Of a stretch of 64,000 nt of DNA, positions 26,617 to 49,422 are shown one piece after another (position 1 is the first letter of the stretch; the number at the start of each line of letters is the position of its first letter). Location of the stretch: contig CALXCA010000002.1 of the NCBI GenBank assembly GCA_944386685.1, forward strand, positions 16,649 to 80,648, read 5' to 3'. The position numbers and the translations under genes are program-made. The notes under the pieces are model-generated. The model was not told the DNA's origin. It did not search any database and was given only the letters and a program-made list of their open reading frames with translations. The stretch comes from an uncultured Clostridia bacterium. GTDB lineage: Bacteria > Bacillota > Clostridia > TANB77 > CAG-508.

Positions 26617-27097
26617 TGTGGAATAAAGATGGATAGATTAGAAAGATTTGAAAAAGCATTATCAGATATACTGAATGAATATGATAATTTGGAAGAATTT
26701 TAAAGATTTAATGTTTAATATTAAAAACTGTTTAAAAGGACTATTTAAACTTAATATTAATATAAATTTGCATATAAATAATTATAAAGATTGTACTAAT
26801 TACATTTTTTTCAATAATGAAAATAAAAAAATATAGTCATAACAAAGAATAAATGATTTGATTCATTTATTCTTTTTATATTATATATAATACTTATCTT
26901 AAATTACTTGTATTGAATAATTTATTTTAGTTTTTTAGGATTTTTGTATTATAGATATATAATTTATTGTTTTTTCCATTTTATAAATTTTGGAAAGTGG
27001 TTTTGTAATTTTGGCACATATAAAAAATATCTTGGTAGATTTGTAATGTTATGATTAAAAGTATAACTTAAAATTTTTGTAGAATTTTTAAATGTTC

Positions 27098-27130
27098 GTT
27101 GATTTTTTATAAGAAATAGTGTATAGTAAA
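27098..27130 (+). promoter_or_regulatory. Promoter for the small hydrophobic peptide gene
   Basis: TTGATT-17-TATAGT. Confidence 0.35.
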
Positions 27131-27211
27131 TAACGATAGAGATGAGATAGCAGAATGTTGGGCTACCACTTTCAATACTTGATATATTCGAGAGCAAGGA
27201 GGTGGTTGTTT

Positions 27212-27313
27212 ATGGGATTTATATTAACTTTAATATATGCTTTGGGATTCTCCCTAACTGTAAACATAGCCTTATTGTGTATTATATACATAATGTGGAC
27301 TAATAAACAATAA
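27212..27313 (+). CDS. 33-aa hydrophobic peptide, type I toxin candidate
   Basis: MGFILTLIYALGFSLTVNIALLCIIYIMWTNKQ. An AAGGAGGTG ribosome-binding site lies 8 nt upstream. Followed by a bidirectional hairpin terminator at 27318-27352. Confidence 0.4.
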   Translation: MGFILTLIYALGFSLTVNIALLCIIYIMWTNKQ

Positions 27314-27403
27314 AAAACAACACATTCTGCTTTTGCCAGTGGGAATGTGTTGCTAAAACAATTTATGTGGTAGCCACATTTTCTGTGGTTCTCATTTTCT
27401 ATC

Positions 27404-27432
27404 TATATTATACACAGGATTTTAATATTTGT
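27404..27432 (-). promoter_or_regulatory. Consensus sigma-A promoter firing antisense toward the peptide gene
   Basis: Minus-strand read is TTGACA-17-TATAAT. It points into the 3' end of the peptide mRNA, and the hairpin at 27318-27352 with a minus-strand U-tract serves as its terminator. Confidence 0.4.
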
Positions 27433-27485
27433 CAAATATGATGTTGGCAAAATTTTTTTGTATATTAGAAAAGAGGTCTATTGAA

Positions 27486-27810
27486 TATGTTTTTAAGTTC
27501 GGTTAGTTTTTGTAGAAATGATAAATGTAGTAAAAAAGATTCTTGTTTAAGATATACTACTGAAAATGATAATATAAAAAGTGAAACATATTTAGTATTA
27601 ACAGAAGAAGAATGTAATAAAAGTAAAAGCTATATCAACAAAGACGATTATTATAAAAAAATGATTATGAATATTATTGATGAAGTCCCTAATGATGATT
27701 TAGATAACAAAATGTTATTACAAATTTGTAATTCATTGTTAGACATATCTAAAAAATATGATTTAGAAAAAAAGCTAAAAGAAAAAATCAGAAAGTTAGA
27801 AAGTAAATAA
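27486..27810 (+). CDS. Hypothetical protein (about 108 aa)
   Basis: ORF only. A terminator hairpin follows at about 28001-28036 (aagtctgcaat...attacagacttttt). Confidence 0.4.
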
Positions 27811-28203: not shown

Positions 28204-28398
28204 ATGAAAATTAAATGTTTAAAATGTAATGATATAATTGAATCTTTAAGTGTTCACGATTATAAAAAATGTAAATGTGGAGCATGTTCAATTGATGGTG
28301 GAAATGAATATACGAGAATTGGTGGAGATGTTAAATACATTCATTGGGTATATGATGATGGACATGAAGAACCTGTACAAAAAAATAATGCAAAATAA
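28204..28398 (+). CDS. Small Cys-rich (zinc-finger-like) protein, 64 aa
   Basis: CLKCN...CKCGAC motifs. GGCGAG ribosome-binding site. First gene inside the element's left end. Confidence 0.5.
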   Translation: MKIKCLKCNDIIESLSVHDYKKCKCGACSIDGGNEYTRIGGDVKYIHWVYDDGHEEPVQKNNAK

Positions 28399-28421
28399 TA
28401 TTAATTGCATTATTTTTTTAA

Positions 28422-28520
28422 TACTGTTCAACACTATTCAGAACTGTTCAACACTGTTCAACACTGTTCAGACTATTTGAACTGTTCAATACTGTTCAGA
28501 ACTGTTCAATACTGTTCAAT
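28422..28520. repeat. Tandem array of about nine 10-11-bp direct repeats, CTGTTCA(A/G)NA
   Basis: actgttcaaca / ctattcagaa / ctgttcaaca x2 / ctgttcagact / ...ctgttcaata / ctgttcagaa / ctgttcaata / ctgttcaatt. The period is about one helical turn, as in iterons. Confidence 0.7.
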
Positions 28521-28533
28521 TTATAAATATATA

Positions 28534-29994
28534 TTATTGTTTTAATATATATCGTTTCTTTGGATCATTTATATTCGTTCCAACCCACTCAATGATTTGA
28601 AGTTCTTCTAATTTTTTTAAAACATTAAGAACTGTATTTTTTGATCTTCCTGTATATTTTATCAATTCTGTTGTCCCTGCTTCTCCTTTATCACTGATAT
28701 ATCTTATAATATTTCTTTCAAATGCAGGTAATTTTTCCCAGTCTTCTTTTATATTTAGTTTTTTCTGTAAAGTTTCTGATATTCTTTTATCACGCATAAC
28801 AATATTATTTTTTAAAGTTAATTTTAGTATATCTCCTTCTTCGTAAACATACTCAGGTTCATCTAAGAAAAACTTAGCCATTTCTTCATAAATTCTTGAT
28901 ACACCTTCGTTCAATTCTTTAACTAATCCTAAATCAACAAGTGTTTCTGATATTTTTGTATTTCTTGCATATCTAACTTTTTTCATATTTTCAAGTGTTA
29001 CAAGTCCTGGTAATTTTCCTGGACTTCTTATTTCCATTCTATCATCAAAAATAAAAATTTTTATGTGTTCACCTCTCATAGCATAATTTCTATGTGTAAC
29101 AGCATTGGTAATTCCTTCAAGCCATGCAAATTCAGGGTATTCTGGTATCTTCTCGAACACTCCATCTTTATTTAAATGATTAAAATCTCTTAATTGGCTT
29201 CTTATAAATTTTTGAACTTCAATGATTAATTTGTAGAGAGGTAATCTAAAAGTTTCTTCTTTGATTATATTTAAATTTTCACCAGTTTGCATATAAGTCC
29301 CTTCGTATTTTATAACTCTGACTCTTGCACTTGGAAAGAAAACTGTTGGATCTTTTGCAAAAAGCAATACACCAGCAGTTGTTAGATGTTCTTCATTTTT
29401 TACTTTTACTAAAAACCTTCTTGCTCTTAATATGTCAATAGGATCTTTGTCTATAGCTTTTATACTTTTTGCATAGATGTTAACCATATCTAAATCTATA
29501 TCATCAATTGAACTTTCTAATACCGGCTGATCTTCATATGATATTTCGGGTCTATCTACTTTTAATATTTGAATTTGCTCATCTGTTAATTTTATTGTAG
29601 AATCACCTCTTCTTAAATAAACTTCGTCTTTAACATTTCTTATTAAGCAATTGTGACTAATTTCAATATGTAATAGTAATATAAAATCTTCATGACCATT
29701 AGTATTTATTATATTCAATTTTTCAGTTTTTATTTCATGAATTGTTTTTAAATATTGTATACTACTTTTTAAAATGTCATTATCCTTATTTCCATAATTT
29801 TTAAATCCTTCTAATTTACCATCATCGGTTATTCCAATTGCTAAAGTTCCTCCATCCGCATTAGCAAATCCTGCAATATGGTTTGCTATTTCTTTTATAT
29901 CTTTTTTAGCACTTTTTCTATCAAATTTTTGATTTTCTTTAGCAAAACGCAAATATTCTTCAGTTAATTCTTCATTTAATTGTGATTGTAACAT
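28534..29994 (-). CDS. Schlafen/AlbA_2-domain plus HATPase_c_4 plus C-terminal wHTH protein
   Basis: N-terminal AlbA_2 signature (IANHIAGFANADGGTLAIGITDDGKLEG), a central GHKL-like region and a C-terminal winged helix (TVLNVLKKLEELQIIEW). Confidence 0.7.
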   Translation of the reverse strand: MLQSQLNEELTEEYLRFAKENQKFDRKSAKKDIKEIANHIAGFANADGGTLAIGITDDGKLEGFKNYGNKDNDILKSSIQYLKTIHEIKTEKLNIINTNGHEDFILLLHIEISHNCLIRNVKDEVYLRRGDSTIKLTDEQIQILKVDRPEISYEDQPVLESSIDDIDLDMVNIYAKSIKAIDKDPIDILRARRFLVKVKNEEHLTTAGVLLFAKDPTVFFPSARVRVIKYEGTYMQTGENLNIIKEETFRLPLYKLIIEVQKFIRSQLRDFNHLNKDGVFEKIPEYPEFAWLEGITNAVTHRNYAMRGEHIKIFIFDDRMEIRSPGKLPGLVTLENMKKVRYARNTKISETLVDLGLVKELNEGVSRIYEEMAKFFLDEPEYVYEEGDILKLTLKNNIVMRDKRISETLQKKLNIKEDWEKLPAFERNIIRYISDKGEAGTTELIKYTGRSKNTVLNVLKKLEELQIIEWVGTNINDPKKRYILKQ

Positions 29995-30011
29995 TTTTTA
30001 CTGCTCCTTTT

Positions 30012-30761
30012 CTATAATCTACTCATTATATCAATATACTCACCAGCAGTTAATACTGTTTTAGGTAAATGTAATTGAGTATAATAAGTATCTTTATTTT
30101 TTTGATATATAGCATCAATAATTTTGCAATTTTCATCTTTATCAATTGTCATTACTAAACCAAGCACATTATATTTTTGTGATAATTTTGTAGTATATAA
30201 AGCAATTCTATCAGTTGCATCAAGTGGCATTTCTTCATCATCAAAAGAATCAATCTCAACAATTATAATACTATTTTCTAAATCTTTAATTTTCATCATA
30301 ATTTGTGGTTTAGGATCTTTACTGTTTACAAAATCATTAAATATATTTTCTATTTCTAACATTGAAATATTTGTATTTGTTATAGTTTCTCCAAAAGTAG
30401 TTTTTCCTACTCCACAACATAATTCGTTTATTGCTGTGCTTAATGTAGTATCATTTTTGTAAATTTCTTTTACTTTATCCATTCTCTTTTTTGTAAAGTT
30501 GTATTTATCTTTAATACTAGATATATCAAGTGTATCTCTATCTGTTTCATCTACAAAAACATCTGGTGTTCTTCCAAGTAAATAATCTATTGAAACATTA
30601 AAAATTGTAGCTAGTTTTTTTATTGCTTCTATATTTGGCTCTCTCATATCTAATTCATATTTTGATATTGCTGCAGGTTCTACTCCTAATCTTGTTGCGA
30701 TATCTTTTTGCGTAAATCCATTTTTTTCTCTTAAATACTTTATTCTTTCGCCATTTGTCAT
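30012..30761 (-). CDS. XRE-family HTH repressor with a C-terminal domain of unknown function
   Basis: N-terminal Cro/C1 HTH (IKYLREKNGFTQKDIATRLGVEPAAISKYELDMREPNIEAIKKLATIFNVSIDYLLG). The roughly 170-aa C-terminal domain is uncharacterised. Confidence 0.75.
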   Translation of the reverse strand: MTNGERIKYLREKNGFTQKDIATRLGVEPAAISKYELDMREPNIEAIKKLATIFNVSIDYLLGRTPDVFVDETDRDTLDISSIKDKYNFTKKRMDKVKEIYKNDTTLSTAINELCCGVGKTTFGETITNTNISMLEIENIFNDFVNSKDPKPQIMMKIKDLENSIIIVEIDSFDDEEMPLDATDRIALYTTKLSQKYNVLGLVMTIDKDENCKIIDAIYQKNKDTYYTQLHLPKTVLTAGEYIDIMSRL

Positions 30762-47370: not shown

Positions 47371-47494
47371 TTGACTTTTTAATATATTCTGTGTATAATA
47401 AATATAGGAAATAGAGAAACCACAAACGTGGTTTTGCCAGATAAATTGAGAAAACTCACATCTACCTTGCAAAGTACAGATGTGAGCTTTTTTT
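47371..47494 (+). ncRNA. Candidate small RNA of about 88 nt, delimited by a promoter and a terminator
   Basis: TTGACT-17-TATAAT at 47371-47399. The transcribed part carries two hairpins (gaaaccacaaacgtggtttt; ctcacatct-accttgcaaagtac-agatgtgag) and ends in T7. No ORF with a ribosome-binding site is present. Confidence 0.4.
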
Positions 47495-47859
47495 ATTTAT
47501 GTAGTTGCTTATCAACCCAGTTCTTAAACAGAACTGCTGTCAAGGCAACGTTTAATGTTAAAGATAACATTAAAGATATTATAAAAAATAGTATCACTTT
47601 AACCATAAACATCACCACCCTTCCTACGAAGATTCGTAAAATTGGTGGCAAAAACCACATCTGCTTATTCTCATTTCCTATGTCAACAAGTATAACATAC
47701 ATTTTACATTAAAACAATAGAAACAAACAAATATTTGCAAAAAATTTTTAATAAAAATAAATTTTAATAAAAAATATTGAAAAATATTAAAAATATGATA
47801 TAATATTAGCCAAAGTTAATTAATAAAAATAAATCCGATGAAAAAGCAAAGTAGATATA

Positions 47860-48245
47860 TAAAAAGTAACAGAGAAAATAGCAAAGCTGAGAGCTATTTA
47901 AAAAATATATTGAAATTTCACTTTTGAGGACTTCTTTTCAAAGCAGAACAAATGTAATAACAGAATTCATGTTATTGTTAAAGAAAAGATATTTTTTACA
48001 ATAAAAGAATAAAATATTACTGAAAATAAAAGCAACTAGAAAGAAGCGGTAGAACCGTTAAAACTATAAATGAGATTAATTGATAAAATTATAATCAATT
48101 TTAAATTTTGACTTTAATAAACAATATAAATAAAGCTAATAAAAATTATGGTTATATAAAATTTAAAAACAATTAATAAAATTAGGTGGTACCACGAAAT
48201 AGCCAATCGTCCTAATACAGGGATGTATTGGCTATTTTCTTATTT
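47860..48245 (+). promoter_or_regulatory. T-box riboswitch leader (Phe specifier) of pheST
   Basis: Stem I with AGAGA (acagagaaaat) and a specifier region containing UUC (gacttcttt). T-box sequence AATTAGGTGGTACCACG at 48178-48196. Terminator atagccaat...attggctatttt at 48198-48240. Promoter TTGAAA-16/17-TATAAT at about 47777-47806. Confidence 0.75.
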
Positions 48246-48372
48246 GTTCTTAGGAATAGCTTTTTTCTACTAAATAAAAGGGCTTTGTCCTAACAAATAC
48301 ATATATAAAAAATAAAGAAAAATGAAGATATCAAGAGATAATCATTCATTTATAGTAAGAGGAGGAAAAACA

Positions 48373-49422
48373 ATGGAAAGCAAAATTGAAGAATTAAAAA
48401 AAATTGCTGAAGAAAAAATAAAAAACATACAAAATTCACAAGAATTACAAGATTTAAAAGTACAATTACTAGGAAAAAAGAGTGAAATATCAAACCTATT
48501 AAAAGGATTAGGAGCACTATCACCAGAAGAAAGACCAAAAGTAGGAGCACTAGTAAATAAAGCAAGAACTGAAATTGAAGAAAAAATAGAAAAAGCAGAA
48601 AAGAAAATAAAAGAAAAAATGTTAGAAGAAAAAATTCAAAAAGAAACAATAGACATAACATTACCAGGAACAAAAATTCAAAGAGGAAGTAAACACCCTG
48701 TAAATAGAGTAATAGAAGAAATAGAAGACCTATTTGTATCAATGGGATATGATGTAATTTCTGGACCAGAACTAGAAACAGATGAATACTGTTTTGAAAG
48801 ACTAAACTTACCACAAGGACATCCAGCAAGAGATATGCAAGACAGTTTTTATATAACAAATGAATATTTATTAAGAACTCAAACATCAGCAGTTCAAGCA
48901 AGAGCAATGGTTGCAAATACAGAAAAAACACCAATTAGAATGATATGTGCTGGAAAAACATATAGAAGAGAAGATGACGCAACACATTCACATCAATTTG
49001 GTCAAGTAGAAGGACTTGTAATAGATAAAAAAGAAAGAAATGTTTCACTAGCAGACTTAAAAGGAACATTAGAAATATTTGTTAAAAAACTAATAGGTAA
49101 AAACTGTGAATTACGTTTTAGACCAAGTTACTTTCCATTCACAGAACCATCTTATGAAGTTGATGTAAGTTGTTTTAAATGCGGAGGAAAAGGTTGTAGC
49201 TTGTGTAAACAAACAGGATGGATAGAAGTGTTAGGAGCTGGAATAGTACATCCAAATGTTTTAAAAATGAATGGATATGACCCAGAAAAATTTGGAGGAT
49301 TTGCGTTTGGAACAGGACTTGAAAGACTTGCCATGTTCAAATATGGAATACCTGATATGAGATATTTATATACAAATGATATCAGATTTTTAAGCCAATT
49401 TGATAGAAAAGACGAGGAATAG
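48373..49422 (+). CDS. pheS: Phenylalanyl-tRNA synthetase alpha subunit
   Basis: Class II aaRS motifs (FRPSYFPFTEPS; GAGIVHPNVL; GFAFGTGLERLAM). A GAGGAGG ribosome-binding site precedes the ATG at 48373. Confidence 0.95.
   Translation: MESKIEELKKIAEEKIKNIQNSQELQDLKVQLLGKKSEISNLLKGLGALSPEERPKVGALVNKARTEIEEKIEKAEKKIKEKMLEEKIQKETIDITLPGTKIQRGSKHPVNRVIEEIEDLFVSMGYDVISGPELETDEYCFERLNLPQGHPARDMQDSFYITNEYLLRTQTSAVQARAMVANTEKTPIRMICAGKTYRREDDATHSHQFGQVEGLVIDKKERNVSLADLKGTLEIFVKKLIGKNCELRFRPSYFPFTEPSYEVDVSCFKCGGKGCSLCKQTGWIEVLGAGIVHPNVLKMNGYDPEKFGGFAFGTGLERLAMFKYGIPDMRYLYTNDIRFLSQFDRKDEE

Follow-up and report, generated by a model that had tools for sequence, protein, structure and literature searches.

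In Bacillus subtilis, the type I toxin-antitoxin systems TxpA/RatA and BsrG/SR4 (as well as BsrE/SR5 and YonT/SR6) pair a small hydrophobic toxin with an antisense RNA, and the Shine-Dalgarno (SD) sequence of the toxin mRNA is partly masked by mRNA structure. In TxpA/RatA and BsrG/SR4, the antitoxin forms a long duplex with the toxin mRNA, and decay of the RNase III type follows. Their organization is convergent, with a cis-antisense RNA over the 3' part of the toxin mRNA (summarized in PMC8594479 and PMC6563280), and the antisense RNA overlaps the toxin open reading frame (ORF; PMC8594479). In the Fst/RNAII system (par, Enterococcus faecalis plasmid pAD1), the toxin mRNA and the antitoxin RNA also converge, the peptide has about 33 amino acids (aa), a 5' structure masks the ribosome-binding site, and the two transcripts share a bidirectional terminator; the overlap excludes the ORF, and direct DNA repeats make the RNA 5' ends complementary, such that the decisive interaction lies outside the overlap (PMC8594479). 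In Clostridia, the experimentally studied type I modules are those of C. difficile only (PMC6563280). Here, we describe a locus at positions 27099-27435 of a 64,000-nucleotide (nt) stretch of DNA from an uncultured Clostridia bacterium (contig CALXCA010000002.1; the whole stretch is called the window). [quoted passage not shown]

The locus had been flagged, in an original prediction made from the window sequence, as a type I toxin-antitoxin candidate: a 33-aa hydrophobic peptide faced by a convergent consensus antisense promoter. The results presented below, namely coding constraint, promoter asymmetry, hairpin covariation, a masked SD, and a co-evolving repeat, support this idea. All coordinates are positions in the window. 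The flagged cassette is referred to as module 1 and its paralogue in the window as module 2, and L-numbers (L001, L009, L137, etc.) denote related loci from other genomes or metagenomes. The parts of module 1 were as follows.

27099-27104 (TTGATT) and 27122-27127 (TATAGT), plus strand: sense promoter with a 17-nt spacer, weak (9/12 matches to consensus).
27135..27400, plus strand: predicted toxin mRNA of about 265 nt, with both ends predicted.
27135..27169, plus strand: 5' leader arm (L) of the inverted repeat, which pairs with 27367-27405 in the folded full-length mRNA.
27165..27173, plus strand: anti-SD ACCACUUUC, which pairs with GGAGGUGGU at 27198-27206 (folding).
27178..27192, plus strand: small leader hairpin CUUGA/UCGAG, enclosed by the anti-SD:SD helix (folding).
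27196..27204, plus strand: SD AAGGAGGUG, 7 nt 5' of the AUG.
27212..27313, plus strand: candidate toxin ORF MGFILTLIYALGFSLTVNIALLCIIYIMWTNKQ, 33 codons, one predicted membrane-spanning helix.
27312..27352, minus strand: intrinsic terminator of the antisense RNA, with its hairpin at 27318-27352 (folding and covariation).
27367..27405, plus strand: 3' arm (L') of the inverted repeat, which includes a local hairpin at 27372-27390.
27308..27403, minus strand: predicted antisense (antitoxin) RNA of about 90-95 nt, with both ends predicted.
27435..27430 (TTGACA) and 27412..27407 (TATAAT), minus strand: antisense promoter with a 17-nt spacer, perfect (12/12 matches).

All of the elements named in the original prediction were found here, with three coordinates that had to be moved by 3-8 nt. 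The sense promoter TTGATT-17-TATAGT was present, albeit as a 9/12 match, the ribosome-binding site AAGGAGGTG lies at 27196-27204, and the 33-aa ORF was exactly as claimed. The sequence of the minus-strand promoter TTGACA-17-TATAAT was right, but it occupies 27435..27407 and not 27404-27432, a shift of 3 nt. In the same way, the segment gggctaccac is present at 27160-27169 (not at 27163-27172) and its complement gtggtagcc at 27367-27375 (not at 27375-27383), and the complementarity between the leader and the 3' end that had been seen in these segments turned out to be the core of a longer, co-evolving inverted repeat. Folding bore out the hairpin at 27318-27352; the U-run of this predicted minus-strand terminator is copied from a plus-strand A6 run. 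An antisense RNA of about 80-90 nt that overlaps the toxin 3' untranslated region (UTR) had been proposed, and the antisense RNA predicted here has about 90-95 nt.

The predicted mRNA start was placed by the -10 box and by a conserved family start, AUAG(G/A)AAAUGA, and the predicted end by the terminator-like hairpin at 27372-27390 and the T-rich tail that follows it; this hairpin is terminator-like on the sense RNA and forms a 5' stem-loop on the antisense RNA. Folding of the full-length mRNA gave a minimum free energy of -79.7 kcal/mol (z = -5.4 versus shuffles). The predicted antisense RNA, which consists of the 5' stem-loop and the terminator (z = -2.9), is a full complement of the mRNA 3' UTR and reaches the stop codon, leaving the ORF uncovered. 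Because the A6 run (27312-27317) lies 5' of the central hairpin on the plus strand and no T run follows it, the hairpin of module 1 is a terminator for the minus strand only.

The antisense TATAAT is followed by ATAGAAAATGA, and its promoter was the sole 12/12 match within the 2 kb scanned. Promoter-like sites as a class were not enriched in the region (16 versus 18.7 +/- 4.9 in shuffles); thus, the sense promoter of module 1 is no evidence by itself, but its position is conserved in relatives. Terminator-like sites numbered 4, compared with 0.2 expected, and 3 of these fell within 27365-27390. The inverted repeat has a 19-nt core (27151-27169 with 27367-27385) and, when small gaps are allowed, becomes a longer, imperfect repeat that spans about 38 nt (27135-27169 with 27367-27405). 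As a result, the predicted antisense RNA starts with almost the same 35 nt or so as the predicted mRNA. The arrangement of these elements far exceeds chance, since the same order and spacing recur in module 2 and in more than 100 other loci.

Module 2 was found when the module-1 peptide was compared with the window via tblastn; the two peptides are 43% identical. No cassette copies other than modules 1 and 2 were found in the window. The parts of module 2 were as follows.

47371..47717, sense strand minus: module 2 as a whole, 20 kb from module 1 (tblastn and the same part order).
47717..47712 (TTGTTT) and 47694..47689 (TATACT), minus strand: weak sense promoter.
47681 to about 47404, minus strand: predicted mRNA (full-length fold, z = -10.3).
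47606..47493, minus strand: ORF MVKVILFFIISLMLSLTLNVALTAVLFKNWVDKQLHK (tblastn).
47486..47455: bidirectional terminator hairpin (A-run, hairpin, T-run).
47440..47404, minus strand: L' arm, an inverted copy of the leader.
47371-47376 (TTGACT) and 47394-47399 (TATAAT), plus strand: convergent antisense promoter with a 17-nt spacer.
About 47404-47495, plus strand: predicted antisense RNA.

The order was the same as in module 1: a weak sense promoter, a leader starting with ATAGGAAATGA, an anti-SD, a small hairpin, an SD, the ORF, a hairpin, an inverted copy of the leader, and a convergent promoter. About 45% of positions differ between modules 1 and 2, yet the internal complementarities are kept in each. 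The computed cognate antisense:mRNA duplexes had energies of -163 and -165 kcal/mol, compared with about -60 kcal/mol for pairing with the other module of the window. By these energies, each predicted antisense RNA is specific for its own mRNA, and the two paralogues are insulated from one another.

Neither the exact module-1 peptide nor the exact module-2 peptide was on record in an exact look-up. Such short ORFs are rarely called as genes, and relatives were therefore found via over-extended ORF calls. A word-index protein search returned 59 related proteins, and an exhaustive hidden Markov model search of 1.84 billion protein representatives returned 57 cluster representatives with E < 1e-3; none of the related proteins was named and none had a Pfam domain. 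Loci from gut metagenomes had an architecture equal to that of the window cassettes, and in most members both transcripts would begin with ATAGGAAATGA. We used the pattern ATAGGAAATGA-N(240-270)-ATTTCCTAT, which had at least 118 matches in GTDB representative genomes. From the matches listed, at least 102-103 unique genuine modules were drawn, and the module counts given below rest on these. About a dozen single-strand matches in Nitrosarchaeum, Bacteroidales, and similar taxa were set aside as false positives. Among the matches listed, nearly all of the hosts were uncultured Clostridia or "Clostridium sp." metagenome-assembled genomes (MAGs), such as Clostridium sp. CAG:245 and Candidatus Scatovivens, and they came from human, rabbit, chicken, goat, and deer guts.

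The family comprises four related peptide subfamilies on one RNA frame, and each of them keeps a hydrophobic helix within 33-40 residues. Several modules of different subfamilies often occur within one genome.

Subfamily A: ...SLTLNVALTAVLYKNWVDKQLHK; window copy, module 2.
Subfamily B: MGFILFLIYALGFSLTINVALLTIIYIIWTNKE; window copy, module 1.
Subfamily C: MVEIQALLLIIKLLFAGLVSVTIIAFALIIAIVVIISKQK; without a window copy.
Subfamily D: MIEAVLLEIIYLLLFGLVVETIIVFALIILVIILSK; without a window copy.

Searches of the family and domain collections were negative. Specifically, six peptides covering all of the subfamilies had no match in Pfam or NCBIfam at E values up to 10, and an Rfam scan of both modules with an E-value threshold (E up to 10) found nothing related, the best hits being chance matches far below the gathering scores. 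One such hit was a sub-threshold match to the Rfam rpsL small RNA at 47489-47597 on the minus strand (27.4 bits versus a gathering score of 37, E 0.019); it overlaps the module-2 ORF and is most likely due to chance. When the full-text literature was searched with the peptide motifs and with the 11-nt terminus, the matches were due to chance only. T1TAdb holds 24 families, drawn from genomes already in the literature (PMC8594479). We found no paper on the family, which is undescribed so far and consists of widespread type I toxin-antitoxin-like cassettes of uncultured gut Clostridia.

To compare the two promoters, we used the 63 loci with flanks. The antisense promoter had 11-12 of 12 matches in 62 of the 63 loci (mean, 11.3), and its TATAAT was present in 62 as well. 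The sense promoter, found at a conserved position, had 7-10 of 12 matches (mean, 9.0). A unit of about 90 nt that is bounded by a consensus promoter and an intrinsic terminator, and that would by its sequence yield the antisense RNA, is kept in 62 of the 63 loci. In the classical type I layout, a strong promoter for the antitoxin is opposed to a weak one for the toxin (PMC6563280).

The peptide was examined for signs of coding constraint. An intact ORF of 33-40 codons with a well-spaced SD was present in 100 of the 102 unique modules, which answers the original prediction's question of whether the ORF is conserved as coding in relatives. In 1596 pairwise comparisons, the proportion of nonsynonymous differences (pN) was below that of synonymous differences (pS) in 96% of cases, and the ratio of the two means was 0.57. 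Entropies at the three codon positions were 0.77, 0.36, and 0.86; the second position was by far the least variable, as expected for a hydrophobic helix. The module-1 peptide (33 aa) has a grand average of hydropathy of 1.45 and a best 19-residue Kyte-Doolittle window of 2.28, and all of the subfamilies exceed the Kyte-Doolittle threshold for a membrane helix.

These data bear on the idea that the locus encodes a convergent pair of noncoding RNAs and that the small ORF is untranslated. Such a reading would account for the pairing predicted for the SD and start codon in each of the states modelled, and the RNA elements are indeed more conserved than the peptide. It would leave unexplained why an SD stands at ideal spacing in all modules, why 100 of 102 copies keep the ORF open even though their nucleotide sequences diverge by about 45%, why codon position 2 is strongly constrained and pN falls below pS in 96% of pairs, and why four peptide subfamilies all keep a hydrophobic helix in 33-40 residues. 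We regard an untranslated ORF as very improbable.

Broken alleles provided a further view of the peptide. In 2 of the 102 unique modules (L045 and L118), the ORF was frameshifted or truncated and the RNA elements were intact. The nearest module-1 orthologue, which was represented by L009-L014 from several independent samples and was 87% identical, has lost 1 nt, such that its frame runs into a stop at codon 7; intact members of the module-1 clade were L137/L138, L139, and L008. Occasional broken alleles fit a gene with a harmful product. One of the intact members, L137 (330-672 compared with window 27085-27450), matched module 1 nearly base for base in the leader, the C-terminal half of the ORF, and the terminator, and the N-terminal half of its ORF was that of another sub-lineage (MVKFLLFLILGFLFSITINVALLCIIYIMWTNKQ). 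This mosaic suggests recombination between paralogous cassettes.

The RNA elements were examined for covariation. In a 62-sequence alignment, all 8 stem pairs of the terminator hairpin covaried, with changes on both sides in 9-30 sequences per pair. Over the tested structure as a whole, 96.7% of cells paired, compared with 37-53% when the partners were slid, and the covariation score was reached by 0 of 500 shuffles. A search for homology and covariation in related genomes, which the original prediction had named as a check, thus found both a family and a covarying hairpin. Module 2 and subfamily A have a textbook bidirectional terminator (A-run, hairpin, T-run) as their central hairpin; module 1 does not. 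Automatic stem detection is confounded for U-tracts, as the A-run pairs with the T-run, and U-tract scoring is therefore qualitative only.

The core of the SD, GG(A/U)GG, was conserved in all modules. When the leaders of 104 modules were folded in isolation, the core was paired to the upstream anti-SD, and the variants of the two matched (GGUGG:CCACC, 31; GGUGG:CCACU, 21; GGAGG:CCUCC, 17). The small hairpin that this helix encloses had an equivalent, with another sequence, in other subfamilies.

In the case of the helix between the leader and the 3' arm, MAFFT shifted the register between subfamilies, and we therefore judged this helix by the energies of cognate and non-cognate partners rather than by column covariation. 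Cognate partners from 12 sub-lineages had an energy of -24.8 kcal/mol, compared with -19.5 +/- 0.9 kcal/mol for permuted partners, and 0 of 20000 permutations matched the cognate value. The module-1 clade showed a compensatory change in the terminal helix from GG/CC to GA/UC (AUAGGAAAUGA/UCAUUUCCUAU to AUAGAAAAUGA/UCAUUUUCUAU). In 54 of 60 loci the helix was better as sense RNA than as the complementary strand, the advantage being 7.5 kcal/mol, because it uses G-U pairs.

Another pairing was observed around the start codon. The SD/start region GGUGAUGUUUA (27198-27210) can pair with codons of the LNVA motif, UAAACGUUGCC (27260-27272). In alignment A6 (columns 81-92 with 144-154), this helix was 99.8% paired across 62 sequences, and the changes in it were one-sided and G-U-compatible only. 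It is a possible helix that would compete with the leader anti-SD.

Two ways in which the antisense RNA might act on the leader were modelled and rejected. In the first, binding of the antisense RNA would free the leader anti-SD to stop translation. The accessibility of the SD-to-AUG region was unchanged in the modelling: the full mRNA had an unpaired probability of 0.18 there, compared with 0.19 when the 3' 95 nt were blocked and 0.19 for the truncated mRNA, and the direction of change was not consistent (lower in 26 of 60). In the second, the 5' domain of the antisense RNA would pair in trans with the 5' region of the mRNA. The energy was -30.3 kcal/mol, compared with -29.0 kcal/mol for shuffled antisense RNA.

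We also examined where the cassettes are located. The neighborhoods differed among genomes: L005 is beside mfd, L001 follows a pseudouridine synthase gene, module 2 precedes pheS, and module 1 has a ferredoxin gene on one side and, on the other, an island-like stretch with DUF7695, Schlafen/AlbA_2, and XRE genes. The homology between the window and the module-1 orthologues was confined to 27091-27435, that is, promoter to promoter, ending at both -35 boxes (L009 844-1191). In L012, L013, and L014, the right flank differed between metagenomes from about 20 nt past the antisense -35 box and the left flank was constant; the flanks of L001 and L002 behaved like those of L012-L014. These boundaries suggest either that the cassette borders on variable DNA or that it moves as a unit of 345 bp. 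Cassette DNA was 85-92% identical between MAGs, the flanking genes of which were 74-84% identical to the window, and this points either to very strong selection on the whole unit or to a mobile unit.

Boundaries of this kind might be expected if the locus were primarily a small non-autonomous mobile element similar to a miniature inverted-repeat transposable element, with terminal inverted repeats ATAGGAAATGA...TCATTTCCTAT and with the ORF and promoters as passengers or chance features. The 11-nt termini are perfectly conserved within the inverted repeat of about 38 nt, there are many copies per genome at different sites, the homology with L009 ends exactly at the cassette edges, and the right flank varies among samples. 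Such an element would not, however, be expected to place both conserved promoters outside the inverted repeat and yet within the conserved unit, or to carry an ORF under coding constraint. In addition, the helix between the arms includes G-U pairs and is far better as sense RNA than as the complementary strand, which is unexpected for a DNA-level transposase site, and the terminator and anti-SD covary as RNA. No target-site duplications were identified, on a superficial look only. On balance, we consider a mobile element with passenger genes improbable.

A further explanation is that the peptide is a harmless small membrane protein, such as a regulator or a subunit, that is tuned by the cis-antisense RNA, such that the locus is a regulation module and not a toxin-antitoxin system. 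Several observations would suit this idea. The toxicity of the peptide is putative, the cassette is chromosomal (4 IMG/VR contigs and no plasmid or phage match), its identity between species exceeds that of the flanking genes to the window, as noted above, the ORF is intact in 98% of copies, and the tail of the module-1 peptide is barely charged. It is harder to see why a harmless protein would occur as several diverged paralogues per genome, each with a private antisense sequence, why its genomic position would vary among relatives, and why frameshifted alleles would be found across many samples. Moreover, the gene would be silenced three times over, by a weak promoter, a masked SD, and an antisense RNA with a consensus promoter, and this is typical of products that are normally not made. 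A harmless membrane protein thus seems unlikely to us, though it is the strongest of the three alternatives.

We favor a toxin-antitoxin cassette. As judged by computation, the mRNA is built for poor translation and the antisense unit for constant production. In the mechanism that we propose, the weak promoter would yield an mRNA of about 265 nt, and the membrane peptide that it encodes (33 aa, a single helix) would be the toxin. This mRNA would be self-silencing: the SD would be paired to the leader anti-SD (27165-27173 with 27198-27206), and the first 35 nt or so of the leader could pair with the last 35 nt or so of the 3' UTR to close the mRNA. The consensus promoter on the minus strand would constantly supply the antisense RNA of about 90 nt, which would end at the hairpin just past the stop codon and would be a perfect complement to the entire 3' UTR but not to the ORF. 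The next terminator-like elements on the sense strands are at 27372-27390 (module 1) and 47434..47417 (module 2), such that the 3' end of the mRNA would face the 5' end of the antisense RNA. Contact between the two RNAs would probably start at the complementary terminator loops. The long duplex that follows would lead to cleavage and decay of the mRNA, by analogy with TxpA/RatA and BsrG/SR4, and the peptide would be made solely when the antisense RNA runs out.

Several points weigh against this mechanism or against a toxin as its product. Purifying selection on the peptide is moderate, and part of the conserved LNVA motif may be RNA-structural. The tail of the module-1 peptide, WTNKQ, is very short and barely charged, whereas many type I toxins end in a tail rich in lysine (PMC6563280). 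The SD/start region was predicted to be paired in every modelled state, with an unpaired probability of about 0.18, and there was no translatable conformation among these states. In subfamily A, the bidirectional terminator means that much of the sense RNA may end before the 3' arm; with early termination of this kind, the overlap would be reduced to about 35-40 nt, and the 5'-3' pairing would lack an explanation. Finally, the cassette is rare on phage contigs (4 in IMG/VR) and was found on none of the plasmids searched, unlike many classical systems.

With regard to mobile replicons, searches of plasmid and phage records via blastn and tblastn returned no relevant DNA or peptide match, and IMG/VR had 4 contigs only with the cassette pattern. 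Matches of 47 nt to Bacillus thuringiensis plasmids were AT-rich chance matches. A plasmid or phage origin was discarded on the strength of these searches. A tblastn search of a phage collection (50,697 records) was also without a match, although this is a weak test because BLAST filters low-complexity sequence. No CRISPR array was found beside either window copy, the one Rfam CRISPR-DR match being due to chance.

When the cassette is set beside the described systems, it resembles TxpA/RatA and BsrG/SR4 in its small hydrophobic peptide and Gram-positive host, its convergent cis-antisense RNA over the 3' part of the mRNA, and its masked SD. It has no sequence relation to them (Pfam, NCBIfam, and Rfam were negative), and it differs in that its terminator lies just past the stop codon, such that the overlap is the 3' UTR only. 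Its peptides (33-40 aa) are shorter than toxins of the TxpA/BsrG type, and most of its copies, unlike those systems, lie outside prophages. We know of no co-evolving inverted repeat between the 5' leader and the 3' end in systems of the TxpA/RatA or BsrG/SR4 type.

With Fst/RNAII, the cassette shares the convergent layout, the peptide length, the masking 5' structure, and an overlap that excludes the ORF. The shared bidirectional terminator is clear for module 2 and subfamily A and is half present in module 1. The repeats of the cassette are inverted rather than direct, and therefore its RNA 5' ends are alike and not complementary, unlike those of Fst/RNAII; as described above, no 5'-5' pairing beyond chance was found (-30.3 versus -29.0 kcal/mol for shuffled RNA). 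The cassette had no match to the Fst toxin family in Pfam and no match in Rfam. The original description of the peptide as Fst/TxpA/BsrG-like thus holds as an analogy but not as a statement of membership, given the absence of Pfam, NCBIfam, and Rfam matches and of the 5' direct-repeat complementarity of Fst.

Pairing of the 5' and 3' ends would have a counterpart in hok mRNA, in which the fbi pairing closes the full-length toxin mRNA and alternative helices mask initiation. In the cassette, the two arms co-evolve and are predicted to pair, best on the sense strand, and a clamp would form in sense RNA that reads through the central terminator between them. Sok and IsoA1, the antisense RNAs of hok/sok and AapA1/IsoA1, are directed at the 5' part of their mRNAs, whereas that of the cassette would pair with the 3' end, in which the 3' arm of the clamp is included. 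The cassette has no mok-like leader ORF that overlaps the toxin ORF and is preceded by an SD; the hosts of hok/sok and AapA1/IsoA1 are Gram-negative and belong to another phylum, and there was no Rfam match.

The SprA1/SprA1as system of Staphylococcus aureus is similar to the cassette in that its antisense RNA comes from the 3' side and overlaps the 3' UTR only (PMC8594479), and SprA1 is also a small membrane peptide of about 30 aa. SprA1as acts in trans via a non-overlapping 5' domain on the SD and start codon; in the cassette, such pairing was no better than that of shuffled RNA, and there is no sequence relation between the two systems. The C. difficile modules (CD2517.1-RCd8, CD0956.2-RCd10, CD0977.1-RCd11, and others) consist of convergent overlapping genes with toxins of 34-59 aa that have an N-terminal membrane helix, and they are linked to prophages or CRISPR arrays and have lysine-rich tails and Sigma B promoters (PMC6563280). 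The cassette is like them in its convergent, overlapping sense/antisense layout and short membrane peptide. Unlike them as they are described, it is chromosomal and has consensus promoters of the sigma-A type.

By analogy, the cassette probably works like the Gram-positive systems with a 3' overlap. It shares single traits with Fst/RNAII, SprA1/SprA1as, and hok, but because it lacks a defining feature of each, it was filed under none of them, and it is not a member of the Fst, TxpA, or BsrG families. What is unusual is that it joins traits so far seen in separate families, namely an overlap confined to the 3' UTR, a bidirectional terminator, an SD that is masked, and a possible 5'-3' clamp like that of hok, and that its predicted antitoxin RNA copies the mRNA leader.

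It is conceivable, though we would not expect it, that the cassette is a new regulatory design rather than merely a new family, with the antitoxin RNA as a leader mimic and possibly with the cassette as a mobile unit. In such a design, one RNA chassis (the same 11-nt start on both transcripts, the clamp, the anti-SD, and the terminator) would carry at least four diverged toxin peptides. Because the first 35 nt or so of the antitoxin RNA nearly copy the mRNA leader, it would act by leader mimicry: the antitoxin would compete with the leader for the 3' arm and open the 5'-3' clamp, and the opening of the clamp would decide between degradation, processing, and activation of the mRNA. The 345-bp unit from promoter to promoter may also be mobile, with variable genomic islands at its borders.

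If the locus is a type I cassette, the known systems would gain a whole new family, which comprises four peptide subfamilies and occurs at more than 100 loci in representative genomes. The hosts are abundant uncultured gut Clostridia of humans, rabbits, chickens, and ruminants. The natural sequence variation is enough to read the RNA structure from covariation, and the ready search pattern could be used to annotate such loci. The small membrane-active peptides and the orthogonal sense/antisense pairs are possible tools for anaerobes that are hard to manipulate.

Several features were observed in the vicinity of the two modules. To the right of module 1, a 109-aa cysteine-rich ORF (27481-27810) begins about 50 nt past the antisense promoter and has a weak, sub-threshold match to DUF6078 (E 0.003). 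It is followed by genes for a DUF7695 protein (28204-28398), a 486-aa protein with Schlafen/AlbA_2, HATPase_c_4, and winged-helix domains (28534-29994, minus strand), and a 249-aa protein with an XRE-type helix-turn-helix (30012-30761, minus strand). The genes at 28204-30761 may form a defense or regulatory island. To the left, a perfect 13-bp inverted repeat, AAAGAATAAATGA...TCATTTATTCTTT, at 26844-26875 is followed by T-rich sequence and opens the gene-free stretch of about 480 nt that holds module 1; this repeat probably terminates transcription of the ABC-transporter/ferredoxin operon that lies upstream. Adjoining module 2, the stretch at about 48110-48320 (plus strand), 5' of pheS (48322-49422), contains a GGTGGTACCACG-like motif and, read by eye, looks like a T-box leader.

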